In this document: positions 3,261-45,170 of the stretch, in pieces
Position numbering within the stretch: position 1 is the first letter of the stretch
How the letters are laid out: each line of letters opens with the position of its first letter
IMG/VR virus record: IMGVR_UViG_3300008255_000105
Strand: one strand, 5' to 3'
Length of the DNA: 64,000 nt
Source of the DNA: a virus
Taxonomy: Duplodnaviria > Heunggongvirae > Uroviricota > Caudoviricetes
Made by a program: the position numbers and the translations under genes
Notes under the pieces: generated by a model
What the model saw: the letters and a program-made list of their open reading frames with translations, nothing else
Databases searched by the model: none
Told to the model about the DNA's origin: nothing

Positions 3261-4034
3261 CTATCTGTTATATTTCCCATGATTTTTTTTGTTTATCCTT
3301 TTTTTTCTTGGTTTGCTTTGATGTTCTGTTTTCTTAAAACTTTGATCATCAAATCCTTTCATGTCTCTCATATCTTCATCAGAAATCTTTTGAGGCACTT
3401 CTTCATTGTTGGTTAAAACACCAGAAATAAACATTCTTATTTCTTGATACGCAGAAAAAGTGTCAAATATCTTTTGAAATTCCCAATCTTCAAGTTTCGG
3501 GCAAACTGTTAAAATTACTTCAACCTCTTTTGGTTGAATCAAAAAGCACGGAGTTTTAAGCTCAAAAAATATATTCAAAAAAGATTCTGAAATTGTATCC
3601 ATTTTTGTAAACAACTCATTAGCTTTTCTTTTTCTTGAGACATGATCTGCATTTTCTCTTTTGCCTAATTTTTTATGAGATTGAAGAATTTTATTTGTTA
3701 CCTCAACAAATTCTTCAAATGAATAACAAAATTTCTTAACTACTTTATTCTCCATCTTATTCTCAACTTTGTTAAAAGTTTTTTCTGACCACCATACTAT
3801 AGTTACTTCATAGAGTTTACCACAAAATCCAATTACATTAAACATGCAACTATATGGTAAACGATAATAACTCCAAGAACGAGCCACAAATCCAAAAAGT
3901 TTTTTTAATTCACCTTCATAAGTATACTTTCGCAATTCTTCTTCAACTTGATTGCGAACAAAAACAGGTGTTCTTTCTTCATCATCCCTTTGAACAGAAT
4001 CGTAATAATCCTTGAAACCAGAGATTATACGCAT
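3261..4034 (-). CDS. hypothetical protein (257 aa)
   Basis: ORF on dominant strand. Confidence 0.5.
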   Translation of the reverse strand: MRIISGFKDYYDSVQRDDEERTPVFVRNQVEEELRKYTYEGELKKLFGFVARSWSYYRLPYSCMFNVIGFCGKLYEVTIVWWSEKTFNKVENKMENKVVKKFCYSFEEFVEVTNKILQSHKKLGKRENADHVSRKRKANELFTKMDTISESFLNIFFELKTPCFLIQPKEVEVILTVCPKLEDWEFQKIFDTFSAYQEIRMFISGVLTNNEEVPQKISDEDMRDMKGFDDQSFKKTEHQSKPRKKRINKKNHGKYNR

Positions 4035-4040
4035 CGATCT

Positions 4041-4337
4041 TCAATGCCTCCTTTTCGGTTTTTTCGGGCGGATTTTCTTATTAATCCCTTTTTTCTTCTC
4101 AATCTCTTTTTTAAGATTATCCATCAAATCCTTGACTTCATCACGTTCAGAAATACCATCCATTCTTGGAAAATTAACTTCCCAAAAAGAATAAATCTTT
4201 AGTTCTGGACTTTTTTCAAGTTTTAAACAAAAAGATGCAGCATCCTCTATCCTAACGAAAAGATGTTCATCTAATTTCCAGAATCTTTCATCTTCAGGAT
4301 CTTCAATTTCTGAATGTTCAATTAATAATGATAGCAT
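4041..4337 (-). CDS. hypothetical small protein (98 aa)
   Basis: ORF, tight spacing with neighbours. Confidence 0.4.
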   Translation of the reverse strand: MLSLLIEHSEIEDPEDERFWKLDEHLFVRIEDAASFCLKLEKSPELKIYSFWEVNFPRMDGISERDEVKDLMDNLKKEIEKKKGINKKIRPKKPKRRH

Positions 4338-4584
4338 TATTAATTTCTAGTTTTTCTAGTTTTTCTAGTTTTTCTAGTTTTTCTAGTTTTTCTAGTTTTT
4401 CTAGTTTTTCTAGTTTTTCTTGAAGCGCTGAAACAATATCTTCATGCAATATCTTCGAGCCTCTCCTTAAACACCAATCAATCCTTGCAGCATGGGATGG
4501 TTTTAATTCTTCTTCGGCTAAAACCTCTTCTGAAATATCTTTAACCAAATTATATAATAAATTTGGCAATGAACAGTTTCCCAT
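4318..4584 (-). CDS. hypothetical protein with (LEK)n repeat
   Basis: ORF containing a 9-bp tandem repeat (tttttctag x8, 4344-4418) coding LEKLEK... Confidence 0.4.
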   Translation of the reverse strand: MGNCSLPNLLYNLVKDISEEVLAEEELKPSHAARIDWCLRRGSKILHEDIVSALQEKLEKLEKLEKLEKLEKLEKLEKLEINNAIIIN

Positions 4585-4634
4585 CTCTCGCTCCTCTCGC
4601 TCCTCTCGCTGGGGCTTTTCCGTCGCAGGTCTGG

Positions 4635-5312
4635 TTAGGTCGCATCCTGTGGCTCTGTTGGGGCATCCTGTGCTTGGGTCTCGCCTTCGCTACCTTCGTC
4701 TTTTACGAAAATGTCAAAAGAATCATTTGGGTAGGCAAAGAAATCTTCGTTTTTCCCATAAAAATCATGAAGTTGTCTTTTTGCTAATTCTGAGATATCA
4801 AAAAAATCTATTTCTCTAGGATTGTTTTTGTAGTTTTTTAATTTGATCGCATCACCAAGATTTATGTTATTCAAATAAGCAAAATAAATAACTTTAAGAT
4901 ATTGTTCACAAAGTTCTTTCCCACTAGTTTTGATTGCATTGGGATGTTTTAAAAAGCCACCTTTGAGTTCGGAAACTCTGACCCATTCATTATCAAATTC
5001 TCTTAACGGTTTGACTCTTTTTATCACAAAATCCCATGTCTCTTTGTAAAAGAAGATACTTCTTAAATCTGGTCTATCGTCAAATTCATGTTTTATCTCA
5101 TAATCCAAGCCATCAATAACTCCATCCTCTAAAACTCCGACTGCAATCATTTCAATTTTGTCAAGCAACCCGAAAGGGTGAGCAAAAGTCAAGGAAAAAC
5201 AAAAAAAATAATCATCAACATCTTGTTCTGGTTTATATTTTGGCAAAACCATAACAACTTCTTCACCATTTGAAATTGGGACTTTAGTGAGCGCATCTGC
5301 CTCAAAATTCAT
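4635..5312 (-). CDS. hypothetical protein (225 aa)
   Basis: ORF on dominant strand. Confidence 0.5.
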   Translation of the reverse strand: MNFEADALTKVPISNGEEVVMVLPKYKPEQDVDDYFFCFSLTFAHPFGLLDKIEMIAVGVLEDGVIDGLDYEIKHEFDDRPDLRSIFFYKETWDFVIKRVKPLREFDNEWVRVSELKGGFLKHPNAIKTSGKELCEQYLKVIYFAYLNNINLGDAIKLKNYKNNPREIDFFDISELAKRQLHDFYGKNEDFFAYPNDSFDIFVKDEGSEGETQAQDAPTEPQDAT

Positions 5313-5500
5313 TTGATACTCCCCAACTTGACATTACCAAACAAGCTGAAATCAATCTCACAAACGAATTGTAAATTGCAAATTTCTCTCTTTTTTTGAT
5401 TTTTAAACAAACTTCGTTGTTTTCAAACAACAATTGATATTTCTGACAAATTTTATTGATAAAATCATGTTTTTCATACGGTTCGTCTTTGATTGAGATA

Positions 5501-6897
5501 CCGTTCCTTAAAATCTGCGGAAATCTAAGCATTTGACAATGCTCCAAATATTCGCAAACCTACTGGTTTAAAACCGGCACCGTAAGGTCCGGTAAAGAAT
5601 CGATTCAAAATATTCCTCCCTGCATTTGTATCTGCGTTGCCTTTATGACCACAGCCAAGGCACAGGAATATCTCTCCATTCCGATTCTTCTTATCAGCAT
5701 GACCACATTCAAGGCAAGTGATACTGGTATTATAACAGGGAACAGAACGGAAGGAAACACGGTTTTCTTCACATCCCATTTGAACCCGATTCAACCAATA
5801 TCGCCACACCCACGAGCCGATAACTCGACGCATATTTTTGGAAAGGCGTCGTCTTTCCTTTGTCTTGTGATTCAAGTTTGACAACTTTTCAACAACCACA
5901 AGATCAATCTTTTCATTAGAAACTATTTGTTTTGCAACCTCATCCATTCGTTGTTTCAATGCCCTTCTGGCTCGCTTTTGTCCTTTAGAGCCATGTTCAC
6001 AACGAACTATTCTCTGCACACATTCTTTTATGTCTCTGCCCAACTGCTCACCGTTAGAAAAAGAAGCCAAGGCGTTGATGCCAGAGTCAATTCCGATAGC
6101 ATTTTTGCCTTCCTTCTTCTCTCCTGTTTGAATCTCAAAGCAGAACTGGACATCTTTGTCTGTTATGATGTAGCTATTCAATCTCTGTCCCAAATTGTTC
6201 CATTTGTTAAAATGCTTGTGATATCTGATTGGCAAGTCAATGATAGTCTTTTCCCCAATAGAAGACAGATGTAGCCAACCATCGAATTCGTTTGTCTTAG
6301 ATGGCTGAATATCAGCGATAGTGCAAGAGACATACATCCGATTGCCCTTATGCTTTGGCTTTTCTGCTGTCAATGCTTCTGCCTTCTGCTTCAACTGATT
6401 AGCTTTGTTGGAATACTTCGCCTTTTCGGCTTTAGCTAACAATCGCTTCTTATCATTGGCTATTCGCTCTTGCGAGGCTTTAATCATATCTATTGCTTCA
6501 CGAGCACAGACTTTTCTAAGTCTCGCTGATAGCCAAGACTCTGGTTTATTGACTATATCCTTTAGCAATTCTGCTTTGGTTGGGCAATCATCCCAGAAAG
6601 AATCAATGAACAGATTGCAAAGTCTACCATATTCAGTCAGCACAGTTTTAAGTTGCTCACGCTTGGTAGCGGTAGCGAATTTCAAAGAACACTGTGTTGA
6701 CCGAATTATCTTCATTTTTCTGTCTTCGCCTCTGCTTCTTTAGCTTCCGCTTCTTTCTATTTTCACTACTTCTTTTGCCGTATATTTTGTTGGAAAATGA
6801 CGCCATTAGAGAAGCCGGGTTTGCGAATGCTCACATGTTTCCCTTTCGTTTCCCGCAGTTATCCATAGATTTTCGCAGATTTAGTGCCAACTGTTAT
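5501..6897 (-). mobile_element. tnpB-only IS (IS607/IS1341-like derivative), copy 1
   Basis: both termini are shared with the 33414-37414 element: RE side ccgttccttaaaatctgcggaaatcta... (5501-) and LE side atccatagatttYcgcagatttagtgccaactgttat (6861-6897); similarity stops at 5500/6898. Confidence 0.6.
5525..6715 (-). CDS. tnpB: TnpB (RuvC-like, OMEGA/Cas12-ancestor family), 396 aa
   Basis: RuvC motifs IGIDSGI, VVVEKLS, NADTNAGRNI plus C-terminal zinc finger CLECGH...CLGCGH; ~85% identical to the 33438-34628 copy. Confidence 0.85.
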   Translation of the reverse strand: MKIIRSTQCSLKFATATKREQLKTVLTEYGRLCNLFIDSFWDDCPTKAELLKDIVNKPESWLSARLRKVCAREAIDMIKASQERIANDKKRLLAKAEKAKYSNKANQLKQKAEALTAEKPKHKGNRMYVSCTIADIQPSKTNEFDGWLHLSSIGEKTIIDLPIRYHKHFNKWNNLGQRLNSYIITDKDVQFCFEIQTGEKKEGKNAIGIDSGINALASFSNGEQLGRDIKECVQRIVRCEHGSKGQKRARRALKQRMDEVAKQIVSNEKIDLVVVEKLSNLNHKTKERRRLSKNMRRVIGSWVWRYWLNRVQMGCEENRVSFRSVPCYNTSITCLECGHADKKNRNGEIFLCLGCGHKGNADTNAGRNILNRFFTGPYGAGFKPVGLRIFGALSNA

Positions 6898-7127
6898 TAA
6901 CCCATCAAGATAGCTATTGTCCCTTCGTCGGACAGAACAAAATAATCATCTTCAATTGAGAAAATTATTGAGACACCAGAGCCATCTGGGTAAATCAAAT
7001 CTGTTTCAACCAAAAAAGAGTTTTCACTATGATCTTGCAAAAAATATTCATTCCTTCCAATTAGATCGTAGACATCATCTAGTATTAAATGACCCATCTC
7101 TCTCACTGCCTCCGCTGCCATTGCCAC
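6897..7127 (-). CDS. hypothetical 76-aa ORF ending at the IS left-end boundary (possible 5' part of an IS-disrupted gene)
   Basis: ORF stop uses the terminal t of the IS (6897) plus ta of the flank (6898-6899); an extended -10 promoter sits directly upstream. Confidence 0.35.
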   Translation of the reverse strand: MAMAAEAVREMGHLILDDVYDLIGRNEYFLQDHSENSFLVETDLIYPDGSGVSIIFSIEDDYFVLSDEGTIAILMG

Positions 7128-13384: not shown

Positions 13385-13436
13385 CTGACATACTCCCTCC
13401 GCTAAAGCAGGAAGGCTTTCTAGCCGTGTTCTTTGT
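13385..13436 (-). promoter_or_regulatory. repeated 50-bp leader motif, copy A (SD sequestered in a hairpin)
   Basis: ctgacatactccctccgctaaagcaggaRggctttctagccgtgttcttt; minus-strand RNA folds CCCUCC...GGAGGG over the SD; second copy at 47627-47676. Confidence 0.4.
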
Positions 13437-13533
13437 AAATTATACCTTGTTGTGTCAACCAAAAATTTATGTTTTGCAGGGAATAAAATTTTTTGTTAGA
13501 ATTAATACTTTGATCCTTTGGAGGTTTTTCAAA

Positions 13534-15891: not shown

Positions 15892-17835
15892 TCAGATAGT
15901 TTTTAGTCTTTCTAGTTCATCAAGTTTTAAGAAATAGAACCCGAAAACAGTAGGATACTGCAAGGTTCTTTCTGTGTCAAGATCAATATCTTCCAAATGA
16001 GTTCCCTGTGGTTTTTGAACCCACTTATGAATGTTGCCAAAGAATCTAATAAAAAATTTTTTCACCCAATCAACGATTTGGTTGTGTAAATAATCTTCAA
16101 ATTTTTCAAAGAGGATCAATGCTATTTCATATGGTGATTTCCCATGAGTTACCAATAATTCATAACAAGAGTCTAAAACTTCAAATGGCATTAATTCTCT
16201 TTCATCTTCTTGGTTTTCTGCAAGTTCCGCAGAAGCAACAGTTTTGTAGATCAATCTAGCAAGAACAATCGCAAGTTGTGCGCTCTGTTCGTCGTTTTGA
16301 TTTGCAAGTGCTTTTAGATAAAAATACTCCAAAATTTTGTTAATCTTTGTTTTTCGGCAACCAGAGATTGGGGCAAAATCTCCTTGCATATCACCAAGTT
16401 TTGTCGCATACCCAACGGCTGTTTCCGACATATTGCTTGTGCAGAGCACAAGCCCTCGACAAATATTTGAAAGATTGGCAATTTTTGTTGCACGGATTCT
16501 CGCTTGTATATTTTGATCTGCAATTCTGTAATCCGCCTCTCCAAAACCAAGCCCTTCATTCAATTTACGCAAATCTACTGATTCTCTTTGAAACGGTTCA
16601 GCAATTGATTGTTCGTAAAAATTAAGACCAAGTGTTTCACATAAATCCTTTGAAATATTTCTGGTAGCATCAGAGTTATAAGATGTTGGGAAAGAGACAC
16701 AGGTAACAACATCGTGAGGATTCAAATTATTTCTGATTGCCCATTCATAAGCTAAAATTGCAACCAAGACAGAATCTCGGCCACCAGAAATAGAGATTAA
16801 CATCCTATCAAAAGTACCAACTTTTCTGAAATAATCACCCATTCCCATAATAATTGCATTAATTATTTCTTCGATTTCATCAAAAACTACAACTTTTTCT
16901 TGTTTTTTAATTCTTGATCGATCAATGTTTATTCCCTGTGGAATTTTGACTGTATAAATAGAAGGAATTAACTTTTCTCTTTCAATAAAATCTTCTGCTT
17001 GACTTTTCCAGGTTGTATCTCTTGCCCTTGATGCCCAGACTTCATCAAAATCAACATCTTGGATAACAATTCCTGGTTGGAATCGTTCCAATTCAGCTAA
17101 ACATTCACCCTCTTGAATAATATAGCCACCACCATCAAATGAAAGTTCTCCGTTCCCACCAACTTGATATGCTGCTAGAAGAATCGAATGATCATCAATT
17201 GATCTTTGTCTCAACATCATTTTTCGATTGTTTTCGACTCCTGATCTAAAAGGCGATGCGTTCAAAATAGCATGAACAACTGCGCCTTCATAACCATGGT
17301 GCCTCATTGGCCCATCTGGCACCCAAGAGGTTTCACAAATTTCACAAGAAAAAATGAAGGAACCATTAATTTCAAAAAGGAGATCGCCAAAATCTGGATT
17401 CTCTAAACCAAAACCAATTTTTGTTAAATCAAATTGTTTGCCTTCTGTGGTTGTTCTTTTTTCATAAAAAATACCATAGTTCGGAAGATGTTGTTTGGGG
17501 GTGATACCGACAACTTTACCTTTATGAATCACAAAAGCACAATTAAAAATTCCACGACTCGGGATCGGCAGGAATCCACCAATCACAAAAATTGTATCTA
17601 GATACATTGTAGCTTCACAAAATCTATAAATTTCTTCTATTTCTCGGTGAAAGAAAAATGGCAACAAAAGAAAATCGCTACAAGGATAACCTGTTACACA
17701 ACCTTCTGCATAAACCAATAGATTACAACCAAGATCATTTGCATGAGAAGCATAAGGAAGCATTAAATCTACATTGTTCTTAAAATCACCAACTTTAGGA
17801 TTCATGGAGACAACACCGAGACGTGCTTTTGACAT
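15892..17835 (-). CDS. nadE: glutamine-dependent NAD+ synthetase (nitrilase domain + PP-loop synthetase)
   Basis: 647 aa; SGGRDS PP-loop motif; N-terminal CN-hydrolase-like region. Confidence 0.8.
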   Translation of the reverse strand: MSKARLGVVSMNPKVGDFKNNVDLMLPYASHANDLGCNLLVYAEGCVTGYPCSDFLLLPFFFHREIEEIYRFCEATMYLDTIFVIGGFLPIPSRGIFNCAFVIHKGKVVGITPKQHLPNYGIFYEKRTTTEGKQFDLTKIGFGLENPDFGDLLFEINGSFIFSCEICETSWVPDGPMRHHGYEGAVVHAILNASPFRSGVENNRKMMLRQRSIDDHSILLAAYQVGGNGELSFDGGGYIIQEGECLAELERFQPGIVIQDVDFDEVWASRARDTTWKSQAEDFIEREKLIPSIYTVKIPQGINIDRSRIKKQEKVVVFDEIEEIINAIIMGMGDYFRKVGTFDRMLISISGGRDSVLVAILAYEWAIRNNLNPHDVVTCVSFPTSYNSDATRNISKDLCETLGLNFYEQSIAEPFQRESVDLRKLNEGLGFGEADYRIADQNIQARIRATKIANLSNICRGLVLCTSNMSETAVGYATKLGDMQGDFAPISGCRKTKINKILEYFYLKALANQNDEQSAQLAIVLARLIYKTVASAELAENQEDERELMPFEVLDSCYELLVTHGKSPYEIALILFEKFEDYLHNQIVDWVKKFFIRFFGNIHKWVQKPQGTHLEDIDLDTERTLQYPTVFGFYFLKLDELERLKTI

Positions 17836-17866: not shown

Positions 17867-18511
17867 TTAGATTAACAATTCATCAAAAAGTTCTGTATCG
17901 AGATTAGTTAAGCAATTGACTTCAAATTTTGAAAGTTGTTTGCCGTTGATCCACCAACTTTTATTGCCATCAGCTAATTCAATAGCAGGCCCATCAAGGC
18001 GGTGAAGCTGGCCATTTTGCAACCAAGATTTTGAACCATTGGCAAATTCAATTGCTGGGCCATCAAGGCGATGAAGTTTGCCGTTGAGCCACCATTCTTT
18101 TGTTCCGTCAAACCTTTCAATAGCTGGCCCATCAAGGCGATGAGATTTGCCATTCAATCTCCATTCTTTTGATCCGTCGGCATTTTCAATTGCTGGCCCA
18201 TCAAGGCGGTGAGGCTGGCCATTTTGCCACCATTCTTTTGATCCATCGGCAAATTCCTTTGCTGGCCCATCAAGACGATGAGGTTTGCCGTTGATGAACC
18301 ATTCTTTTACCCCATTGGGCCAATCAACAGCAGGCCCATTAAGGCGATGAAGTTTGCCGTTGATGTACCAATGTTCTACTCCCTCGGGTGTTTGATATGC
18401 TGGCCCATCTTCTCGGTGAAGTTGGCCATTTAAAGTCCAAGTTTTTACGCCATTATTCTCGATCCTTAATTTTGGATTTTTTTTCATAGTTAACCTCAAT
18501 TCATCAATCAA
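17867..18511 (-). CDS. MORN-repeat protein
   Basis: about 8 tandem repeats of the form W..NG..HR.DGPA. Confidence 0.75.
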   Translation of the reverse strand: MIDELRLTMKKNPKLRIENNGVKTWTLNGQLHREDGPAYQTPEGVEHWYINGKLHRLNGPAVDWPNGVKEWFINGKPHRLDGPAKEFADGSKEWWQNGQPHRLDGPAIENADGSKEWRLNGKSHRLDGPAIERFDGTKEWWLNGKLHRLDGPAIEFANGSKSWLQNGQLHRLDGPAIELADGNKSWWINGKQLSKFEVNCLTNLDTELFDELLI

Positions 18512-19767
18512 TAAATAGTTTCTTCAAAGAATTCGGTTGAATTATCCCAAACACGTTGATACCTTTCGACTTCACTCTTGGGGCCTTGTGCTTTCGCAAG
18601 ATTGTTGCTAATTTTAACTGTTGAAACAGGTTCGTTGATCATCAAAGAACTTATCACTTCAACTGCTTTAACAATAATTGACAAAGGATCCGCACCAAGA
18701 TCATTCGAGCAATTTGTACCAATCCCGAATTTAACACCAATCCTTCCACTGAAAGCTTCAAATAGTTTTTTAGCAAGTGGGGGATTTAATCCATCACTGA
18801 AAAAGATGACTTTTTTGAGTGGGTCAATACCTTGCGATTGATAGAAAGAAATAACCCTTTTACCGAACTTGAAGGGGTCGCCAGAATCATGCCTAATCCC
18901 TTTGTAAAAACCAGAAAGAAATCCAGCAAAATCAGCAAAAAATGCATCATCACCAAATGTATCCCCCAAAGCTATTGATAATGGTTTCCCATAAAAAAGT
19001 TTCCAATTTCTAAGGACAAATCTTTGTGATTTCCTCAAAGATTCATCCCCACCAATTGCCCCCATTATTGCAGCTATAACCATATACAATTCGTGGGCTT
19101 GAGTCCCGCCTGGAATTTGTACGTGTTTCATAGCTAAATTAATATTTGATGTCCCTAAACAAGAAGGACAATTCTCAACAAAATCCTCATAACATTCTTC
19201 TTGCCATTCAGGACTAAAAGCCCGCCTTGTCCCAAATTCTACCCACTCAAAACCAGGAATAGAATTGAATAATTCAATTTTTTCTTTTCTGCGGCGGCGG
19301 CCTTCTTTTTTAAGTTCTTCCATTTGATTTGGATATTTATACCGATAATAAAGAGCATTGATTATTGACATAATAAAGGTCTCTGAATAACTGGATCTAG
19401 CCCAATAATCTTGAGAGTCGATCAAAAATTGTCCATCCCGAATGTCAACATTGATTTTAGGCATTTGATAATTTTTTAAGAATTCAAAATAATCAGAAAA
19501 ATCTTCTTTCTTATACCCAACCCTGAATGAATCAGCAATGAATCCAATTTCGTTTGCAGAAAACCTTAATGATCTGCAATGATCTAATTCTTCTCTAACT
19601 GCTTCAATTGGAATAACTTCAGCTAATTTATTGTCTTTTTTTCTATTGTTGAAAGCAAATCTAACAATAGGGTCTGGGAATCTTTCTTCAATGAAAGCCT
19701 GCATGGCAATTTTATACCAATCTGTATGCAAAAGAGTTTTGATAATTGGTTCTGGGTTTGTTAGCAT
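18508..19767 (-). CDS. pncB: nicotinate phosphoribosyltransferase
   Basis: HTDWYKIAMQA resembles the PncB N-terminus DTDAYKLHMQQA; start trimmed to ATG 19767, which has GGAGGA 9 nt upstream (the listed ORF begins at a TTG). Confidence 0.75.
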   Translation of the reverse strand: MLTNPEPIIKTLLHTDWYKIAMQAFIEERFPDPIVRFAFNNRKKDNKLAEVIPIEAVREELDHCRSLRFSANEIGFIADSFRVGYKKEDFSDYFEFLKNYQMPKINVDIRDGQFLIDSQDYWARSSYSETFIMSIINALYYRYKYPNQMEELKKEGRRRRKEKIELFNSIPGFEWVEFGTRRAFSPEWQEECYEDFVENCPSCLGTSNINLAMKHVQIPGGTQAHELYMVIAAIMGAIGGDESLRKSQRFVLRNWKLFYGKPLSIALGDTFGDDAFFADFAGFLSGFYKGIRHDSGDPFKFGKRVISFYQSQGIDPLKKVIFFSDGLNPPLAKKLFEAFSGRIGVKFGIGTNCSNDLGADPLSIIVKAVEVISSLMINEPVSTVKISNNLAKAQGPKSEVERYQRVWDNSTEFFEETIY

Positions 19768-19806
19768 CTCTGCTTTCCTCCTCGCCCTCTTCCCCGTTTG
19801 TAGCAA

Positions 19807-25272: not shown

Positions 25273-25718
25273 TAGGGAGCCCCTTCTTTTGTTTTAGTTG
25301 TTATTTCTACATATTCTTTATCTTCAATCATTTCCTTAATCATAGCAATAATATCAGATTCTGAAACAAAATCACCAATTTCCCTATCAACGCCCTTTAT
25401 TGCTGATTTTCTGCTGACATTATTTAAAGAGGTGCTATTTTTTTGAACACCAACCACCCAAGCACCACTATCTATATCATCAAGTAATTCACAAAAAACT
25501 TTTGCTTTAAAATCATTGGTCTTCGATGAATTATTAGAATTAAAATTAACAAAAACAATATCAATTTTTTCTAGCAAAGTTTTTAAAGAATTTTTCCCAT
25601 CAGATAGATCTGGAAGTTTTAAACTTATAATATAAAACATATTTATCAATTTTACAGCCCAAGCAGATGATCTTTCTTCACTAAAACCAACCAATAGAGC
25701 ATTATTCTTGTCATCCAT
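25272..25718 (-). CDS. hypothetical receiver/STAS-like small protein (148 aa)
   Basis: ALLVGF...; paralogous to the next gene; overlapping ends. Confidence 0.4.
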   Translation of the reverse strand: MDDKNNALLVGFSEERSSAWAVKLINMFYIISLKLPDLSDGKNSLKTLLEKIDIVFVNFNSNNSSKTNDFKAKVFCELLDDIDSGAWVVGVQKNSTSLNNVSRKSAIKGVDREIGDFVSESDIIAMIKEMIEDKEYVEITTKTKEGAP

Positions 25719-26262
25719 CTTTTTTATCTTCCGTTTCTTCGGTTGCTTCCGTTTCTTTGACTTCTTCCGTTTCTTCGGTTGCTTCGGCTTCTTCAGCGCT
25801 GGTAATAGCTTCTAGAATGTTTTGGATAATTATTTTTGATGCTGCAAATTTGTAAAGTTTTACTCCACCAGCTTCTTCTATTTTGACTCTTATTGGTTCA
25901 CTAATTATTTGTGTTAAACCAAAAACAACAAGACTTGGGAAATTCTGGACTAATGATTTTATAACAGTCAGATTTTTTGAAGCAACGCTTTCCACAGGGA
26001 CAATGATTGAACAGTAATCTTTATCTTGAATTAACTTCGCTAAACTTTTTCCACCATTTTCTAAATCTTTTTTGACAATTGAGTTCACCTCAAAAGCATC
26101 TAATAGTTTTTCAACAAAACTATTTACGAAGTTATCGGGGGCGAGACCAACGATCAAGATGCTCTGCTTCTCGGATGACATATTCGTTCTACCTTTCGGT
26201 GGTTTTTGTGATTCGATCAAATTGTTCTTTGAGAGCAGGAAATTCTTGCATCCTTTGTTCAA
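25711..26262 (-). CDS. hypothetical receiver/STAS-like protein with acidic tail (start possibly at M28, 26181)
   Basis: SILIVGLAPD...; C-terminal EETEE repeats. Confidence 0.4.
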   Translation of the reverse strand: MNKGCKNFLLSKNNLIESQKPPKGRTNMSSEKQSILIVGLAPDNFVNSFVEKLLDAFEVNSIVKKDLENGGKSLAKLIQDKDYCSIIVPVESVASKNLTVIKSLVQNFPSLVVFGLTQIISEPIRVKIEEAGGVKLYKFAASKIIIQNILEAITSAEEAEATEETEEVKETEATEETEDKKDG

Positions 26263-31477: not shown

Positions 31478-31543
31478 ATTGGAAAGCAACACACAGGCAA
31501 AATTGCTTTGCCTGTGTGTTGCTTTCCAATTCTTTTCAGTCTC

Positions 31544-33134: not shown

Positions 33135-33413
33135 GGAAGAAATTCTATCTTTTCTAATAAATCGTTATTGGGAAGCCACTCATCAAACCAATTAAGATAT
33201 TCATCTAATCGTTCTTTTGAAAGATTCAATCTCATACCATGATCACGATCAAGAGAGATTAAGCAACATAACAATTTTTCTAAAAAATCTATGGAAATAG
33301 ACAACCACCATTTTCTACCGAATGAAGAAAAAAGAATCGAGCCGCTGCTGGCCCTATAAAAATAACCACATTGAGTAGGATAATCTTCTCCAATCGGGAC
33401 AAAAAGAATCAAA
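33122..33413 (-). pseudogene. 3' fragment of a host gene interrupted by the IS607-like element
   Basis: an ORF continues in-frame from the IS right-end boundary (codon at 33412-33410) for ~96 aa. Confidence 0.35.
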
Positions 33414-33437
33414 CCGTTCCTTAAAATCTGCGGAAAT

Positions 33438-34628
33438 CTAAGCATTTGACAATGCTCCAAATATCCGCAAACTCACTGGTTTGAAACCGGCACCGTAAGG
33501 TCCGGTGAAAAATCGATTCAAAATATTCCTCCCTGCATTTGTATCTGCGTTGCCTTTATGACCACAACCAAGGCACAGGAATATCTCTCCATTCCGATTC
33601 TTCTTATCAGCATGACCACATTCAGGGCAAGTGATACTGGTATTATAACACGGAACGGTTCGGAAGGAAACACGGTTTTCTTCACACCCCATTTGAACCC
33701 GGTTCAACCAATATCGCCACACCCACGAGCCAATAACTCGACGCATATTTTTGGAAAGGCGTCGTCTTTCCTTTGTCTTGTGATTCAAATTGCTAAGCTT
33801 CTCCACAACCACAAGATCAATCTTTTCATTAGAAACTATTTGCTTCGCAACCTCATCCATTTGTTGCTTCAATGCCCTTCTGGCTCGCTTTTGTCCTTTA
33901 GAACCATGTTGGCAACGATTGATGCGATTAACGCAACCTTTTATATCTCTGCCCAACTGCTCGCCGTTGGAAAAAGAAGCTAAAGCATTGATACCAGAAT
34001 CAATCCCTATGGCATTTTTGCCTTGCTTCTTTTCACCAGTTTCAATTTCAAAGCAAAATTGAACAGAATCTTTTGTTATGATATAGGAATTAAGTCTTTT
34101 TCCCAAGTTGTCCCATTTATTGAAATGCTTATGGAAACGAATTGGCAGGTTCATCACGATCTTATTTCCTATTGAAGCTAGATGAAGCCAAGCATCGAAT
34201 TCATTAGTTTTAGACATTTGAAGATCAGCAATAGTGCAACTGACATTCATTCTATTGCCTTTGTGCTTTGGCTTCACGGCTATCAATGACTCTGCTTTCT
34301 GTCTCAATTGGTTCGCCTTTGTTGCGCTTTTAGCTTTTTCTGCTTTGGCAAGAAGCCTCTTCTTTTCGTTGTTGGTTTTTTCTTGGGAAGCCTTGATCAT
34401 GTCAATTGCTTCTCTGGCACAAACCTTTCTAAGTCTAGCTGAAAGCCAAGAATCAGGAGCGTTCACGATGTCTTTTAACAATTCTGCTTTGGTTGGGCAT
34501 TGCTCCCAGAAGGAATCGATGAACAGGTTGCAAACTCTTCCGTATTCGGTCAACACAGCACCAAGCTCCAGCCTCTTTGCGGAGGTTGAAAACTTGAGGC
34601 TGCACTGTGCTGACCGAATAATTTTCAT
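33438..34628 (-). CDS. tnpB: TnpB (RuvC-like nuclease), 396 aa
   Basis: same motifs as copy 1; C-terminal third nearly identical. Confidence 0.85.
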   Translation of the reverse strand: MKIIRSAQCSLKFSTSAKRLELGAVLTEYGRVCNLFIDSFWEQCPTKAELLKDIVNAPDSWLSARLRKVCAREAIDMIKASQEKTNNEKKRLLAKAEKAKSATKANQLRQKAESLIAVKPKHKGNRMNVSCTIADLQMSKTNEFDAWLHLASIGNKIVMNLPIRFHKHFNKWDNLGKRLNSYIITKDSVQFCFEIETGEKKQGKNAIGIDSGINALASFSNGEQLGRDIKGCVNRINRCQHGSKGQKRARRALKQQMDEVAKQIVSNEKIDLVVVEKLSNLNHKTKERRRLSKNMRRVIGSWVWRYWLNRVQMGCEENRVSFRTVPCYNTSITCPECGHADKKNRNGEIFLCLGCGHKGNADTNAGRNILNRFFTGPYGAGFKPVSLRIFGALSNA

Positions 34629-34629
34629 A

Positions 34630-34917
34630 TCAGTGGACCATCCCTTGCGTATCTATGGTAATTTTCTTTTCTCTCACACTATCTAATATAATAGGATATG
34701 GCCTTGATTCAGTAAAAACCTCTTCTCCAATAAGACCGGCTGTATATTCTCCAGATTCCAATGCTAATTGTTTATCATCTTTAACCCACCAATCCATTAC
34801 TTGCTGTTCTTCACCTTCACCAGAAGAAGCAACCTCTGATAATTCGAATTCTATATTCAATTCATAGTCATGTCCATCAATGTTTAGTTTGTGTTCAGTT
34901 TCATATTTAGTTGTCAT
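34630..34917 (-). CDS. small acidic protein (95 aa) between the helicase and tnpB
   Basis: ORF abutting tnpB. Confidence 0.45.
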   Translation of the reverse strand: MTTKYETEHKLNIDGHDYELNIEFELSEVASSGEGEEQQVMDWWVKDDKQLALESGEYTAGLIGEEVFTESRPYPIILDSVREKKITIDTQGMVH

Positions 34918-34929
34918 AATTTTTCTCCT

Positions 34930-36447
34930 TTACAGGTACATAACAGTTTTCTTGAGCTTGCCTAGTTCAATAACATTCTCTATAGGTTCGAACCAAAAAT
35001 ACTTTCCCTCCCAATCCGGCTGCCTTTGAATAAGTGAATTCCAACTATCAATGTGATTTGAATTTGGGCCGTCACAAAAAGTAAGTCTTTCTTTTCCAGC
35101 GAAGGCGCTTTCTCTCGGATTCCTATCCAATAGGGCCTTTGCCCTATCAATCCCCTTTTCACCAGATACCGTATTCGTAGCAACGCTCTTCTTTATTATT
35201 TCCTCTGGAATATCCTCATACTTATCAAACACAATCATCTTGTATTGTCTTTTAATTTTGCTTTGAGAATTCCATCTCCCACCAGGGATTATGGTGAATT
35301 CTCCATCAAAGAATCCGATGATATTATCCACCAATTTAGTGCTTGAGATATAAATCGGGAACACGTCGTCTTGTTTCCTGTGTCCTGATTTACAAGGAAA
35401 GCCTAAATATCTACCGATGGACTGATATAAAGAATCATCGGTTTTATAAGCATCAATATGCATACGAATATGCATAGTCTCATTTAGTGTCTTTCCTGCT
35501 CTCATTGCGCCTTTGATTATAATAATAGAAGGCTTTTTGGGTTGCTCTGATAAAGCACCATCTAACTGACTAATTTCGTAATCTCCATCAATAGAGTATT
35601 CCCTAAACCAAATATTGGGATAGTTTTGCCCCAAATATCTTTCTATAACGAAGGGGGCTTGCCCCTGTGTCCTAATCACAAGATGACCGTTTCCATTCTT
35701 GTTGCAAAGACCAATGAATTCGTCTAGTCTTTCTTTAAAGAATGGAGTGACACAAGACTTCCTATCATCGGCCACTTTTGTTTCATGAACGACTACAAAT
35801 CTCCCATCATTCTTTGCGTCTTCGATTGAATAATAATTATCACTCAATTCCAATTGGATACAAGAAAATGAATTCTCTCTTATTTTTGACTGAAGGACAG
35901 ATGCAAATGGGGTAGCTGACAGAGAAAGAACATAGTTATGACCATTATTCCAATCAGAAATAGGCATACCATATTCTATGCCCAATTTATCAAACAGCAC
36001 ATTAAGTGGACGACTATTGCCTAGAGCCTGATGGCATTCGTCAAGGAAGATTAGCCTTCTATCTACCGTTAGATCTATTTTATCGGGGATCGCATATTCT
36101 GCCCCGCTTTTCTTAGTAAAATCTGCGAGATGGAAAACTTTAACCCGACAAGAAGCATTAGGCTCGTAGATACCAGCGTTCTGTAACCTTCGTTGCTGTT
36201 GTATTTTGAGTTCATTATCGGAAATATGAAGGATAAACAATATTTCGTAAGTTAGTCCTTCTTTCTCCCATTCATCTTTCATCATTTTAGCGACAAAGGT
36301 AGCCACTCCAGTTTTCCCCTGTTGGGTTTGAGCAATTAGCAATGGCGGGCCTTCATGCTTGGCAAATTCTTCTATAACCTCTTCTCCTGCTTTAATTTGT
36401 TCATAGTAAATAACTTCATCTCCAATTTTCATTTCAGATAGGCTCAT
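34930..36447 (-). CDS. SF2 DExH (DECH-box) helicase-like protein, 505 aa, IS cargo
   Basis: Walker A AQTQQGKTG, motif II LIFLDECHQA, motif III SLSATP, motif VI-like QSIGRYLG. Confidence 0.65.
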   Translation of the reverse strand: MSLSEMKIGDEVIYYEQIKAGEEVIEEFAKHEGPPLLIAQTQQGKTGVATFVAKMMKDEWEKEGLTYEILFILHISDNELKIQQQRRLQNAGIYEPNASCRVKVFHLADFTKKSGAEYAIPDKIDLTVDRRLIFLDECHQALGNSRPLNVLFDKLGIEYGMPISDWNNGHNYVLSLSATPFASVLQSKIRENSFSCIQLELSDNYYSIEDAKNDGRFVVVHETKVADDRKSCVTPFFKERLDEFIGLCNKNGNGHLVIRTQGQAPFVIERYLGQNYPNIWFREYSIDGDYEISQLDGALSEQPKKPSIIIIKGAMRAGKTLNETMHIRMHIDAYKTDDSLYQSIGRYLGFPCKSGHRKQDDVFPIYISSTKLVDNIIGFFDGEFTIIPGGRWNSQSKIKRQYKMIVFDKYEDIPEEIIKKSVATNTVSGEKGIDRAKALLDRNPRESAFAGKERLTFCDGPNSNHIDSWNSLIQRQPDWEGKYFWFEPIENVIELGKLKKTVMYL

Positions 36448-37084
36448 TGTTTTCTTCCTTTTCTTTTTCAGCTTTACGCTTTTTCCTATTATCAGCAGAC
36501 CGTTTTCCGTAAATTTTATTTGAAAAAGATGCCATCAGCGAAAGAATGTCTTCCACTAACTCTTCTTCATAACTCTTTCCAAGTATTTCTTCAACCCATT
36601 CAATCTCGACACCGTGGCTTCGGAAGAATTTCACAAGAAACTCAAACATAAATCGGCACAACCGATCACGATGTTCAATGATAACCTTGTCAATCTCACC
36701 TTCTTCAGCCAGTTTGAGAAGCCGGTTCAATTTTGGGCGATCATCCGACATTCCAGAAGCAACCTCTTCAAAAGTTGCCACGACGAAATATTTTTTATCA
36801 ACACAATATTTTGACAATCTTCCCGATTGTCTCCCTAAGTCGCCTTTTGTTTTTTGTTCTTGCGATGATACTCTAGCATATACCGCTACTCTGATAGTAT
36901 CTCTAGTTTTCTCTGCCTCTTCGCCAATAAAAGCCTGAATATCTGATATTTTGTATCGCCTGTGACCACCGGGGGTTTTCATCGGGACAAGAGTTCCTGA
37001 CTTGTCCCATTGGCGCAAGGTATCTATATTGACTCCAAGGATTTGTGAGGCTTCTCCTATGCTAACTAACTTCTGTTGCGCCAT
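36434..37084 (-). CDS. tnpA: IS607-type TnpA: MerR-like HTH + serine recombinase
   Basis: N-terminal VSIGEASQILGVNIDTLRQWDKSG (MerR HTH); catalytic VAVYARVSSQEQ; 14-nt overlap with the helicase gene. Confidence 0.8.
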   Translation of the reverse strand: MAQQKLVSIGEASQILGVNIDTLRQWDKSGTLVPMKTPGGHRRYKISDIQAFIGEEAEKTRDTIRVAVYARVSSQEQKTKGDLGRQSGRLSKYCVDKKYFVVATFEEVASGMSDDRPKLNRLLKLAEEGEIDKVIIEHRDRLCRFMFEFLVKFFRSHGVEIEWVEEILGKSYEEELVEDILSLMASFSNKIYGKRSADNRKKRKAEKEKEENNEPI

Positions 37085-37414
37085 CTATAAGTTCTTTCTC
37101 CTTGAAGGTGTAATACCATTGATCATAGATTCTTTGGAATTCTTCAATCTCAGGAAGTTCATCTTCGGCAAATGGCAACGGATGCGGAAAGACCGATCCG
37201 TTATCAAGTTCGAATTCAGTTGTTGTAAGTCTAACAACAGTATGCTTTGTAATCATTTTGTCCATACCTTCCTATTCGCAGTTTTCTAACAGATTCCTGC
37301 ATATTTTTAAGATTTCCTGAGATTTATTTTGAGGACAGATTTTGCAATGCTCGTTAGAGCATCTTATTTACCCATATATCCATAGATTTCCGCAGATTTA
37401 GTGCCAACTGTTAT

Positions 37415-37674
37415 CTACCCTTTTGGAGCGCAATCAAAGATCCTGCTATTTCTTCATAAACAACACCCAATCTTGTGTTTCCTAAAAGAAACTTTTGGGA
37501 TAAAACCATAGCCATATGTTTATCGTCGATATTAAGACCTTTTGCTTTAAGTAATTCTTGGAATTTTACCCTAATTTGATACAAATCATGCCTATTTTCA
37601 GATAAAAACTTCAAAACATCTTTCACCCCCTGGCCCTCTTCCTCTGACATGGCTCTAGACCTTCCTGAAATCAA
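37415..37674 (-). pseudogene. 5' fragment of a host gene interrupted by the IS607-like element
   Basis: the ORF stop codon is created by the IS terminal sequence (ctgttat gives TAA on the minus strand). Confidence 0.35.
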
Positions 37675-38053: not shown

Positions 38054-38085
38054 GTCTTAACTCCTTTTGTGGTTTTTTCGAAACA

Positions 38086-38159
38086 TAGCCAAGGAGAGAC
38101 TCGAACTCTCAATAACACGGTTCTTGGCCATGCTCCTCTACCAATTGGGATACTTGGCC
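38086..38159 (-). tRNA. tRNA with atypical anticodon loop CCAAGAA (apparent anticodon AAG, C33); identity uncertain
   Basis: 7-bp acceptor GGCCAAG/CTTGGCT; canonical T-arm GAGAG-TTCGAGT-CTCTC; anticodon stem CATGG/CCGTG; no encoded CCA. Confidence 0.55.
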
Positions 38160-38167
38160 ATCAGACA

Positions 38168-38686
38168 TTATTCAACTATCCTTAAAAAGTAAATCACATG
38201 CATCTCATCAAAATTTTCACTTTTGAAACCAATCACTTCAAAACCATCATCAACAACATTTTGAATTGCTTCTTGTAATGAAAAATCTGAATATCTAAAA
38301 GTCTTTGTTGCAACTTCTTTTTTGATTCCAGCTAATTTTTCGAATTCTTTAACCGTTTTGAAAATTAGACCCATTCGTTTTTTCAAATTTTTAAACAATT
38401 CTTCAGGGTCTCTTTTCGGTGGATAGGTTTTGATGGGCGGCAATGTTTCACAACAAAGACAAGCAATGTATCCACTCCATTCTTCGTGACTCTCCCATTC
38501 ATCGGAAACAACAATCGCAAAATCTTTCTTTTCTGCGGGTTGAAATTCAACCCTAAATCTTCCAGAACTTTCCAAAAAACTCTCAACAAAATCTTTTGGC
38601 TTAACTACAACCCAAGAATAACCTGGGAAAACTTTGGAAATAGCAGCTAAAAGTTCTTCTATCGCTTTCTCCTTTAGCGACATCAT
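38168..38686 (-). CDS. hypothetical protein (172 aa)
   Basis: ORF. Confidence 0.5.
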   Translation of the reverse strand: MMSLKEKAIEELLAAISKVFPGYSWVVVKPKDFVESFLESSGRFRVEFQPAEKKDFAIVVSDEWESHEEWSGYIACLCCETLPPIKTYPPKRDPEELFKNLKKRMGLIFKTVKEFEKLAGIKKEVATKTFRYSDFSLQEAIQNVVDDGFEVIGFKSENFDEMHVIYFLRIVE

Positions 38687-38815
38687 TGCGCCTCCTTTAG
38701 ATCACTTTTTATTTCATCATTCTCCCGTGAATCTTTAAGTTCCCATTCCATCCCAGGAAATTCTTTTTTGATAGCTTCCATTATTTCTTTTTGTTCATCC
38801 GTCAAAGTTTGGTTC

Positions 38816-39250
38816 TCACTCATAAATCACCTCCGAAACATCGGTCGTGATTTTGATTTCTTCATTAGGAATTACCATAAAACGAAATTGTTTCAGACGA
38901 TTTGCCCATTCTTCAGGAACCTTTGAATATTTGTTAAAAACGGTTTCATCAACATCAGAGACACGAACAATTTCATTGTTTCCAAACAAAGTATCTAATT
39001 GGGCACGGATTTCTTTAAGAGATTTATCAGACAAGATGTATTTGTACAAACTCCCATCCGGCCAAGAATAGCAAGGGAGATGTTCAATTCCTGCTTCTTC
39101 TAAAACTGTTCTTACGATTTCTTTTGCGTCTGAAAGTGCCTTCTGTTCTTTTTCGCTTGGTTCTATCCCACCATGAGGCTCTTGATAATAAAAAGCAATA
39201 GTAAACGAAAGATATTTTTTCCCACAGACATCCGGTGTTGCTTGGCCCAT
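38816..39250 (-). CDS. hypothetical protein (144 aa)
   Basis: ORF. Confidence 0.5.
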   Translation of the reverse strand: MGQATPDVCGKKYLSFTIAFYYQEPHGGIEPSEKEQKALSDAKEIVRTVLEEAGIEHLPCYSWPDGSLYKYILSDKSLKEIRAQLDTLFGNNEIVRVSDVDETVFNKYSKVPEEWANRLKQFRFMVIPNEEIKITTDVSEVIYE

Positions 39251-39252
39251 TT

Positions 39253-39561
39253 TCAGTCCTTTCTCTCAATCCCAAGAAGTTTTAGATCTTCTGGGGACAA
39301 ACCTGCAAGCAATTTCTTTTTTTTGAAATCATCTAAAGAATAACTTGTTTGCGCCAAAATTGATTGAGAAATTTCAGGTGGGGTTATATCTGCTTCCCAA
39401 TCCATAATCTCTTTCCCTGCGAACCAAGCTTTTCTCCAAACACCACCATATTCACTCAGACCATCAAGAACAATAACCACACCAGGAAGTTTTTCTGAAA
39501 CCTTCGCAATATTCTCATAATCCCATGATTTTGTGTTCCCAACTCCGGGGCAATCTGTCAT
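39253..39561 (-). CDS. hypothetical protein (trimmed; the listed N-terminus overlaps tRNA-Glu)
   Basis: internal ATG at 39561; the upstream part of ORF 39253-39864 reads through the tRNA and the GC-rich RNA. Confidence 0.4.
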   Translation of the reverse strand: MTDCPGVGNTKSWDYENIAKVSEKLPGVVIVLDGLSEYGGVWRKAWFAGKEIMDWEADITPPEISQSILAQTSYSLDDFKKKKLLAGLSPEDLKLLGIERKD

Positions 39562-39656
39562 TTTGAAAAACAATTCCTCAACTTCTTTTGTTGCTTCTGT
39601 CGGGACAACAGTTAAGGTGTGCTTAGTGTAATCGCCCACGGGTTTTCTCCTGCTCA

Positions 39657-39728
39657 TAGCCCTGGGGGGAATTGAACCCCTCGTTTTAGCCTTGAAAGGG
39701 CTGCGTTCTACCATTGAACTACAGGGCC
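39657..39728 (-). tRNA. tRNA-Glu (UUC)
   Basis: acceptor GGCCCTG/CAGGGCT; D-arm GTTC-AATGGTA-GAAC; anticodon loop CTTTCAA; T-loop TTCAATT. Confidence 0.8.
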
Positions 39729-39929
39729 TAACCGGGGAGCACCTCACCCCACTGTGTAACAGGCGCATCGCCCAACTCATGCATGGGGGAGTTTCCCCTC
39801 GGCCCGATCTGGTGCCTGCCCGTGGCGGGGCTGAGACAACCCCAGCCCCGCCACGGAGGCTCAACAGGTATGGTAGACCAACCCGGCCGCCAAGTCAACA
39901 ACGAGCCCTCGGGCTCGTTGGGTGTCTTT
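39729..39929 (-). ncRNA. GC-rich structured leader/ncRNA candidate co-transcribed upstream of tRNA-Glu
   Basis: ~65% GC island; 14-bp perfect hairpin ccgtggcggggctg...cagccccgccacgg; GNRA-like hairpins; promoter at 39930-39939. Confidence 0.3.
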
Positions 39930-39939
39930 ATTATACCAC
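39930..39939 (-). promoter_or_regulatory. extended -10 promoter GTGGTATAAT
   Basis: motif copy 3, directly upstream of the GC-rich island and tRNA-Glu. Confidence 0.4.
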
Positions 39940-40117
39940 GAGTTTTTTGCTCAATTCCAAGAATTCAAAAGTAGAGTCTTAATTTAACGCTGCGGATTAA
40001 ATCTTTTCCCCAAATTCTGTAATCCTCCATTTCTTTTCCCCTACTTTCCCTTTCGGATAAATCATCTTTTTCCTTGACATATTAGCAATGACCTGATTCT
40101 TTTGTGATTTTGTTAAT

Positions 40118-40432
40118 TTAAAAATAAGATATTTTGTGGGAATCCTCTTCGCCAATCATTCTTTCGGCAAGAAATACAGCTTCTTCTATTTCATCTTCAT
40201 CACTTCTGTAACCGTTCATCTCCCCTATTGTTTTTTGAATATAAACATCTTTTTCAGATTTAATATTCTTGATTCTAGAATAAAAACCTAAAAGTCTTAA
40301 TGTCTCAAAGAAACAAAAAATAATCTTCATCCCCACATCAAAATATGAAAAGGCTGTAATTAAAATAACAAAAGTTGAAATAAACAAAACTTTGTTCATT
40401 TTTATTTGTTTATCTTTTGCTTTTAAATTCAT
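40118..40432 (-). CDS. small membrane protein (104 aa)
   Basis: hydrophobic N-terminus. Confidence 0.4.
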   Translation of the reverse strand: MNLKAKDKQIKMNKVLFISTFVILITAFSYFDVGMKIIFCFFETLRLLGFYSRIKNIKSEKDVYIQKTIGEMNGYRSDEDEIEEAVFLAERMIGEEDSHKISYF

Positions 40433-40560
40433 TCATTTTGATTTTAATTCTTTTATTTCTCTGAAGTATTTTAGTTCAATAAAAGCTAAAAAGAAATAAA
40501 TTGCAGAAATTATCCACCAAGCGAATGGAATCATATCTTTTTCTCCTGGGTTTGATTAGT

Positions 40561-41436: not shown

Positions 41437-41483
41437 TCTTCTTCATCATCTTCATCACGGCCCGCCTTCCTCAACAAAAACAA

Positions 41484-41568: not shown

Positions 41569-41582
41569 TCATTTTCCTAAAA

Positions 41583-42460: not shown

Positions 42461-42490
42461 GACAGACTCCTTTCGTTAGCCGCCAACCCT

Positions 42491-45143: not shown

Positions 45144-45170
45144 TTTGTCCCTTCTTTCGGTTTCAGGGTT

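Follow-up and report, generated by a model that had tools for sequence, protein, structure and literature searches.

A predicted tnpB-only derivative of an IS607-family insertion sequence, with a putative omega-RNA scaffold, in a phage-like genome

In the DNA stretch analyzed here (IMG/VR record IMGVR_UViG_3300008255_000105; 64,000 nt, the whole of which we call the window), we characterized an element on the minus strand at 5500-6899, termed copy A. It is very probably a non-autonomous, tnpB-only derivative of an IS607-family insertion sequence (IS), residing in a phage-like genome and specifying an omega-RNA scaffold on the tnpB strand together with a guide derived from the adjacent flank. 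A second, larger copy, copy B, lies on the same strand at 33413-37416. Because copy A keeps a left end and a 16-residue remnant of the transposase gene tnpA besides an intact tnpB and a right end, it is a non-autonomous deletion derivative. A preliminary description, made from the sequence without database searches, had placed copy A at 5501-6897, which was essentially right, its coordinates being accurate to 1-2 nt; it had overlooked the C-terminal tnpA remnant of copy A, the 4-kb extent of copy B with its three extra open reading frames (ORFs), and the host ORFs split by the insertions. Feature positions are collected in Table 1.

Coding content and boundaries of the element

The TnpB proteins of the two copies are identical at 346 of 396 residues (87.4%, where ~85% had been estimated), and the identity of their genes, 68-75% in the first 600 nt, climbs to 91-98% in the last 400 nt, in keeping with the nearly identical C-terminal third noted previously. 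Nucleotide identity extends 25 nt beyond the TAG stop codon (ATTTCCGCAGATTTTAAGGAACGGT), the length given in the preliminary description, and ends at 5500 and 33413, 1 nt beyond the abrupt ends that it had set at 5501 and 33414. Both proteins match PF07282 (Cas12f1-like_TNB) above the cutoff, in the range of 45-47 bits (44.8 bits for copy A), and score only 23-24 bits against NF038280 (IS607_TnpB); the TnpB clade to which they belong is divergent. Residues D210, E276 and D362 and the cysteines C334, C337, C352 and C355 are invariant in 31 sequences (both copies and 29 homologues). By the position of their motifs (GIDxG, VVE and NAD), the first three are the predicted RuvC-type catalytic triad, and the four cysteines make up a zinc-finger pattern CxxC...CxxC. 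A profile made from this alignment matches solved Cas12f and TnpB structures, including 8exa and 8h1j at E=4e-7.

A protein search returned 1070 homologues at E<=1e-3, and the clade has at least 374 metagenome loci; for comparison, loci were gathered from metagenomes and metagenome-assembled genomes (MAGs). Scanning the viral contigs with the TnpB protein recovered no relatives, and the element had no BLASTN match among GenBank phages. TnpB-like and IS607-transposase families of PHROGs match the TnpB and TnpA of the element and GenBank phages carry distant TnpB homologues; phage-borne IS607/TnpB elements are therefore not new. A full serine-recombinase gene stands directly upstream of tnpB in at least 23 of 61 evaluable family loci, with a partial one in 6 more. 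In relatives from phage-like contigs (loci L001-L009, 75-83% identical), the upstream tnpA is cut down to the MerR helix-turn-helix part of 58-146 aa. Since these loci keep the opposite end of tnpA from the copy-A remnant, the gene decayed independently several times.

The remnant in copy A was recognized from the sequence upstream of tnpB (ATGGCGTCATTTTCCAAC...), which encodes MASFSNKIYGKRSSEN; its BLASTP alignment with residues 184-199 of TnpA from copy B has 14 identities in 16 (E=2e-8). It abuts tnpB, whose ATG falls within the tnpA reading frame. The TnpA of copy B scores 191.5 bits against NF033518 (transpos_IS607; cutoff 110), has PF00239 (Resolvase) and PF00376 (MerR) domains, and shows a readable YARVSS catalytic-serine motif. 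The ResIII-like ORF, orf95 and orf67 of copy B are ordinarily absent from IS607 elements. Between tnpA and tnpB, copy B carries 1.8 kb of extra ORFs, which is atypical for IS607 and is the only unusual feature of the element. A search for end-like sequences in the copy-B interior found none. The cargo ORFs had no PADLOC or PHROG match, and a role for them as a defence system was rejected on that ground. The sequence ATGAAAATT is found at the start of tnpB and again 15 nt inside the ResIII ORF, and may be microhomology left by insertion of the cargo. At the 5' end of tnpB in both copies (6625-6714 and 34537-34627), a hairpin-type Rfam match at noise level (E about 1) on both strands suggests a palindromic hairpin over the gene start.

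The left ends of the two copies share 38 bp at 97% identity (6860-6897 vs 37377-37414), and the left junctions read GGGT/TAATAACAGTTGG and GGGT/AGATAACAGTTGG (the slash marks the junction). The inverted match that had been reported at the ends is a 17-mer, TAGATTTCCGCAGATTT, found on the minus strand at 5511-5527 and 33424-33440, where it spans the tnpB stop codon of each copy, and inverted at 6866-6882 (1 mismatch) and 37383-37399 (0 mismatches) on the plus strand; a weaker copy with 3 mismatches lies at 37309-37325. These five matches at <=3 mismatches compare with 0.42 expected, and the number was equalled in none of 100 shuffles. By analogy with ISXfa1, in which TnpA repeats lie in RNA stem-loop 3, the right-end motif is a probable TnpA-binding repeat. 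The termini carry this subterminal inverted motif only, without long terminal inverted repeats, in keeping with the IS607 family, whose members insert at GG-containing sites and duplicate no target sequence beyond the crossover dinucleotide. A third exact copy of AAGGAACGGT, at 2867-2876, was rejected as an element end, being without right-end homology and looking like a ribosome-binding site.

The same boundaries recur throughout the family, in agreement with those proposed in the preliminary description. In nearly all of the 105 loci with a complete tnpB 3' end, the right end reads [AG]GGAACGGT (or TGAACGGT or TAACGGT) 2-55 nt past the stop codon, ...AACGGT lies within 80 nt of it, and unrelated sequence follows. 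At 77 independent right junctions the flanks diverge at once, with random base composition from +1, and GGAACGGT is also the exact point after which the two copies of one Thermoplasmata MAG (L016 and L024) diverge. Left ends were located through the inverted motif in 29 loci, with the consensus TCGAACAGTTG...; GGGT precedes it in about 27 of the 29, and the sequence before GGGT is variable. GGT is thus present at both junctions, as GGGT outside the left end and as CGGT before the right flank, in the window and family-wide; the crossover dinucleotide may be either GG or GT. Four insertion contexts were seen among close relatives (A, B, L001 and L009) and 77 family-wide. By its match to the GGG target-adjacent motif (TAM) of ISXfa1, the GGGT outside the left end is the predicted TAM. 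Four family members (L056, L065, L080 and L084) are inserted beside or within tRNA genes, as seen in their right flanks; in L080, the sequence just past the right-end GGT, TCGATTCCCACGGGGTCCACCA, is the 3' portion of a tRNA.

Both copies probably interrupt host ORFs. Removing copy A (6900 joined to 5499) gives one uninterrupted ORF of 142 codons, and removing copy B (33413-37416) gives one of about 175 codons, which fits precise insertion into host genes. The predicted uninterrupted junctions are GGGT/ATCTCAATC at site A and GGGT/TTGATTC at site B, and the predicted donor joints are TCTTGATGGGTATCTCAATC and CTCCAAAAGGGTTTGATTC. A preference for in-frame insertion was considered and rejected, the family flanks giving 9, 8 and 10 loci per frame and 38 outside a long ORF. 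Within the right end of each copy lies an ATG (5531-5533 and 33444-33446, minus strand) that is in frame with the downstream half of the split host ORF (MLRFPQILRNG followed by the flank) and is the start chosen by gene callers. As the family flanks show no frame preference, this is probably a coincidence, and translational restart from this ATG was rejected for the same reason.

Table 1. Positions of features in the window
Feature	Position	Strand	Remarks
tnpB, copy A	5525-6715	-	396 aa, apparently intact; PF07282 and guided_TnpB matches, invariant catalytic residues
tnpA 3' remnant, copy A	6663-6806	-	first 16 codons homologous to TnpA C-terminus; remaining tnpA deleted
Left end, copy A	6860-6899	-	holds inverted motif AAATCTGCGAAAATCTA at 6866-6882
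GGGT outside left end, copy A	6900-6903	-	predicted TAM / insertion-site core
Right-end inverted motif TAGATTTCCGCAGATTT, copy A	5511-5527	-	makes 3' arm of terminal stem-loop
Predicted omega-RNA scaffold, copy A	5500-5690	-	191 nt
Helix H1, copy A	5690-5682/5602-5594	-	family covariation
Helix H3, copy A	5669-5665/5616-5612	-	family covariation
Helix H4, copy A	5662-5657/5643-5638	-	family covariation
Helix H6, copy A	5593-5587/5578-5573	-	family covariation
Helix H7, copy A	5566-5565/5507-5506	-	closes terminal stem-loop
Terminal stem-loop, copy A	about 5510-5562	-	between H7 arms
Single-stranded tail AACGGT, copy A	5505-5500	-	3' end of scaffold
Predicted guide, copy A	5480-5499	-	5'-AUCUCAAUCAAAGACGAACC; first 20 nt past family-wide boundary; length assumed
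Host ORF split by copy A, downstream half	5302-5499	-	upstream half 6900-7127
Copy B, full element	33413-37416	-	4004 bp; left end 37377-37416
tnpB, copy B	33438-34628	-	396 aa; PF07282
orf95, copy B	34630-34917	-	95 aa
ResIII-like ORF, copy B	34930-36447	-	505 aa; PF04851, 28.6 bits
tnpA, copy B	36434-37084	-	IS607 serine transposase, intact
orf67, copy B	37062-37265	-	67 aa
GGGT outside left end, copy B	37417-37420	-	adjoins 37416
Predicted omega-RNA scaffold, copy B	33413-33603	-	191 nt
Predicted guide, copy B	33393-33412	-	5'-UUGAUUCUUUUUGUCCCGAU; flank past boundary
NAD synthetase / nicotinamide phosphoribosyltransferase homologues	15892-17835; 18508-19806		match phage families
Seven tRNA genes (Leu, Glu, Thr, Ser, Arg, Asn, Met)	38085-54656	-	

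A conserved RNA structure across the tnpB 3' end

The last 191 nt of the element encode a predicted omega-RNA scaffold with the layout of a right-end RNA, about 166 nt of it being tnpB coding sequence and 25 nt the right end, and with the stop codon in the 3' arm of a terminal stem-loop. Such a layout had been proposed in the preliminary description, and a conserved structure was found where it was expected. The last 230 nt of 73 non-identical family members were aligned with MAFFT, and RNAalifold gave a consensus of 29 pairs. In this structure 97.2% of cells are paired, compared with 39-50% when the partner is slid by 1-3 columns, and 261 cells are changed on both sides, compared with 9-39 in the slid controls. 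Compensatory changes occur at 15 pairs, and the observed values were reached in none of 500 shuffles. For example, pair 97/154 is AU in 34 sequences and GC in 29, pair 101/150 is CG in 40, UA in 19 and AU in 13, and pair 175/191 is GC in 37, AU in 19, CG in 14 and UA in 3. Some of the compensatory changes cross amino-acid replacements; at the TG.YG motif, ACC...GGT, ACG...CGT and ACA...TGT all keep the stem. G-U pairs are abundant, reaching 45 and 44 of the 73 sequences at two positions of H1, and the structure is therefore on the sense strand of tnpB.

Helix H7 (CC...GG) covaries to AA...UU. The stem-loop that it closes is predicted in almost every member despite widely differing sequence, and it leaves the 3' AACGGU single-stranded; support for this stem-loop comes from per-sequence folds and from H7, since the 5' arms are out of register in the MAFFT alignment and RNAalifold predicted nothing there column-wise. 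Comparison of the folds of both copies, suggested earlier as a check, agreed with the consensus: unconstrained minimum-energy folds of the 191 nt reproduce all consensus helices, with z-scores of -2.8 for copy A and -4.05 for copy B, and none of the 8 differences that separate the copies over the last 215 nt disrupts a helix. A long-range partner or pseudoknot for the 3' tail GGAACGGU was sought and rejected, the best runs in the family being scarcely longer than in shuffled sequences (6.1 vs 5.6 nt) and lying at scattered positions. A stretch of 7-9 nt complementary to the tail GGAACGGU(U) was seen about 50 nt upstream of H1 on the minus strand of copies A (5739-5745) and B (33652-33660) and in locus L009.

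Predicted guides, proposed mechanism and alternative explanations

The variable segment immediately outside the right end would be transcribed and used as the guide. The preliminary description had chosen the correct flank for the guides and was off by one in their positions, giving 5481-5500 and 33394-33413 where the family-wide boundary gives 5499 to 5480 and 33412 to 33393. Neither guide has a second match in the window (at <=3 mismatches for the copy-A guide), and the 20-mers formed by GGGT and the guide have no match in the viral contigs or the metagenome_contigs collection. That the guides match nothing else in the window or the viral contigs is as expected for a homing guide.

By analogy with published IS607 work, the RNA would be expressed, be loaded into TnpB and direct cleavage and homing as follows. 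Transcription across the right end would turn about 20 nt of flanking DNA into guide. The intact TnpA of copy B, probably able to mobilize the two copies alike given the near-identity of their ends, would excise either one scarlessly and so recreate GGGT next to the flank. TnpB with its omega RNA would then recognize GGG(T) as the TAM together with a match to the guide and cut the empty site, so that the enzyme carrying AUCUCAAUCAAAGACGAACC (copy A) or UUGAUUCUUUUUGUCCCGAU (copy B) would cut its own regenerated GGGT and flank, and recombination with a genome copy still carrying the element would restore the insertion. The occupied site would be spared because the right end reads CGGT, not GGGT. 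A further possibility, which we regard as speculative and rather doubtful, is that copy B is a 4-kb cargo-carrying IS607 transposon whose TnpA mobilizes copy A, and that the two TnpB-omega RNAs act as a gene drive during co-infection by large phages, cutting and converting the uninterrupted alleles of related phages, which hold GGGT and the guide sequence.

Several observations weigh against our reading of copy A. Searches of Rfam over both elements returned no family at the gathering threshold or at E<=5-10, with only noise-level miRNA and snoRNA matches. The scores against the NCBIfam guided_TnpB model NF040570 (74-82 bits, E=1e-20 to 6e-23) are below its curated cutoff of 100, and the nearest annotated phage and plasmid TnpBs are only 22-29% identical. 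Exact 24-25-mers over the donor joints, which would mark empty sites, were found in neither metagenome_contigs nor viral_contigs; all contigs with the neighbouring methylase protein also carry the insertion. A search for homologues of the restored host ORFs gave none for site A, and for site B only an already-split C-terminal fragment. The set of 77 right junctions was anchored on AACGGT or AACGAT, which in itself accounts for part of the invariance at -6 to -1; the anchoring does not explain why positions -12 to -7 are conserved and those from +1 random. Lastly, near-identity of the two copies covers about 500 nt at the 3' end and the 38-bp left end, with the middle about 70% identical. Since the 500 nt exceed the scaffold, this is not due to RNA constraint alone.

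The last observation is the starting point of an alternative, which we consider improbable, in which two decaying tnpB copies owe their shared 3' end only to recent gene conversion or recombination and yield no working guide RNA. Identity does rise gradually from about 70% to 98% over a distance longer than the 191-nt scaffold, and copy A, being without tnpA, fits a history of decay. Moreover, a contig from another sample (L035; ENA ERZ27293358 k141_905362, 3756-5160) is copy-A-like upstream and over the first 840 nt of tnpB and copy-B-like from site 897 into the copy-B flank, thus joining the 5' two-thirds of one copy to the 3' third and flank of the other; the switch falls within a 56-nt stretch without sites that distinguish A from B, and the copy-B part comprises the last 320 nt and the right flank. 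This contig represents a genuine recombinant of A and B or, alternatively, a chimera produced by assembly. Against decay, however, both tnpB ORFs are intact with all catalytic residues, and the RNA structure is upheld by covariation in about 73 distant members without recourse to copies A and B. Near the 3' end the two copies differ at 8 places, all of which spare the helices, and recombination and RNA function are compatible. Part of the 3' identity therefore probably comes from recombination between the copies rather than from RNA constraint alone, and the likely cause of the near-identity is either such exchange or selection to keep both ends recognizable by one TnpA.

Another alternative, and a very improbable one, is that the conserved right-end sequence is a DNA-level TnpA site of subterminal repeats and not an RNA. 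The 17-nt motif recurs in inverted orientation at the left end, where copy B has a further, degenerate version of it, and IS607 ends carry TnpA-binding repeats that in ISXfa1 overlap stem-loop 3. Yet the covarying helices H1-H6 sit 70-190 nt inside tnpB, far from the terminus, the many G-U pairs would turn into A-C mismatches in DNA or on the opposite strand, and the terminal stem-loop keeps its shape while its sequence varies; the right-end motif probably serves both as part of the RNA and as a TnpA site. Two further alternatives concern the role of the element in its host. Domestication of TnpB by the phage as an RNA-guided nuclease or repressor against the host or rival elements, no longer serving the transposon, would suit the phage-like location and the lack of tnpA in one copy, and has been documented elsewhere (TldR). 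It is nevertheless extremely unlikely here, given that both ends are intact with an intact TnpA in the same genome, that the nuclease residues are intact, unlike TldR, in which RuvC catalytic residues and transposon ends are lost, and that the guides are plain local flanks with no other match in the window or the viral contigs. An IStron, that is, an element with a group I intron splicing itself from host mRNA, is hardly credible at all. Both insertions interrupt ORFs on the tnpB strand, a shared orientation that splicing would explain, and IS607-family IStrons exist, but no group I intron match was found at E<=5 over either whole element, the 184 nt from the left end to tnpB in copy A, part of which is tnpA remnant, are too little for the ribozyme, and the family flanks show no frame or ORF preference. 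An IS607-family derivative with a flank-derived guide remains our preferred reading of copy A.

Related systems, genome setting and significance

The closest described case is ISXfa1, an IS607 element of Xylella fastidiosa (Yoon et al., bioRxiv 10.1101/2023.08.09.552727). Its RNA is ~150 nt and runs ~17 nt past the boundary, with a 144-nt scaffold and a 17-nt guide; its nuclease cuts at a GGG TAM and not at CGG, and most copies are in GGG sites. As its right end reads CGG, the occupied site is immune (10.1101/2023.08.09.552727). As seen or predicted for the copies described here, ISXfa1 has a serine-recombinase TnpA partner, a guide RNA overlapping the 3' end of tnpB and continuing past the right end, GGG at the left flank with CGG before the guide, TnpA repeats in the last RNA stem-loop, and common tnpB-only copies. 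It differs in lacking a detectable close sequence relationship to our elements, in its scaffold (144 nt vs the 191 nt predicted here), in its reported pseudoknot, none being identified in the present family, in the conserved T that follows GG at both junctions here (GGGT and CGGT), and in the phage-like genome setting of our copies.

Other systems are more distant. ISDra2 (IS200/IS605; PDB 8EXA and 8H1J) belongs to the same superfamily and has, as is predicted here, a scaffold overlapping the tnpB 3' end, a guide from the right flank and a homing role; in contrast to the serine recombinase and GGG(T) found here, it pairs a Y1 (HUH) TnpA and single-stranded 'peel and paste' transposition with a TTGAT TAM. 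ISFba1 (IS607; Cell Res 2024, PMC11061315) encodes a TnpB of about 390 aa and its tnpA is often degraded, but its RNA lies wholly downstream of the coding sequence, carries the RAGATH-18 motif and goes with an AGGAG TAM. RAGATH-18 marks another clade of IS607 TnpBs (PMC11061315); the copies A and B gave no Rfam match to it and extend only 25 nt past the tnpB stop, with GGGT outside the left end. CboIStron (bioRxiv 10.1101/2023.11.20.567912) likewise combines an IS607 TnpA with TnpB and omega RNA, sits inside protein-coding genes and has tnpA-less copies beside an autonomous one, and its TnpB-dependent retention after scarless excision by TnpA has been shown; it contains a group I intron, whereas none was detected in copies A and B.

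The window belongs to a contig of at least 114 kb and also holds an N6/N4 methylase. These features, together with the seven tRNA genes and the homologues of NAD synthetase and nicotinamide phosphoribosyltransferase, point to a large phage, on the basis of such genes rather than of structural hallmark genes. Repeats of other kinds were noted elsewhere in the window. Two arrays of tandem repeats of about 69 nt (17884-18459 and 56838-57645), 38.6 kb apart and 63-82% identical to each other, probably correspond to a 23-residue unit repeated in each of two paralogous proteins. Tandem repeats of 9 nt form runs within ORFs at 4335-4433, 25709-25798, 53979-54077 and 63305-63430, as low-complexity protein repeats such as (EKL)n at 4318-4584. 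There are also a 54-nt repeat pair with a GC-rich hairpin (13385-13438 and 47628-47681; 96% identical), a 78-nt pair (49046-49123 and 50572-50649; 91% identical), three tandem units of ~22 nt resembling GGCTCCCCGGAGGCTTGCAAGGG (55432-55515), and a perfect 24-nt inverted repeat with a 5-nt loop (31478-31530).

Every feature tested follows the established pattern of IS607 TnpB, and the RNA is not in Rfam. With the IS607 mechanism already established, the conceptual gain is small; in practical terms, the element offers a candidate small nuclease whose guide scaffold is defined. If the gene-drive scenario were true, the cargo of copy B (the ResIII-like helicase ORF and the two small ORFs) would spread with the element, and exchange between copies A and B would have left its trace in the recombinant contig L035. 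For the family, the rule described for ISXfa1, by which the insertion site has GGG and the right end CGG and the element thereby spares itself, holds far from Xylella, and a large, uncultured clade of compact IS607-type nucleases (about 370-400 aa) gains a well-delimited example with a covariation-backed RNA model and a predicted GGG(T) motif.

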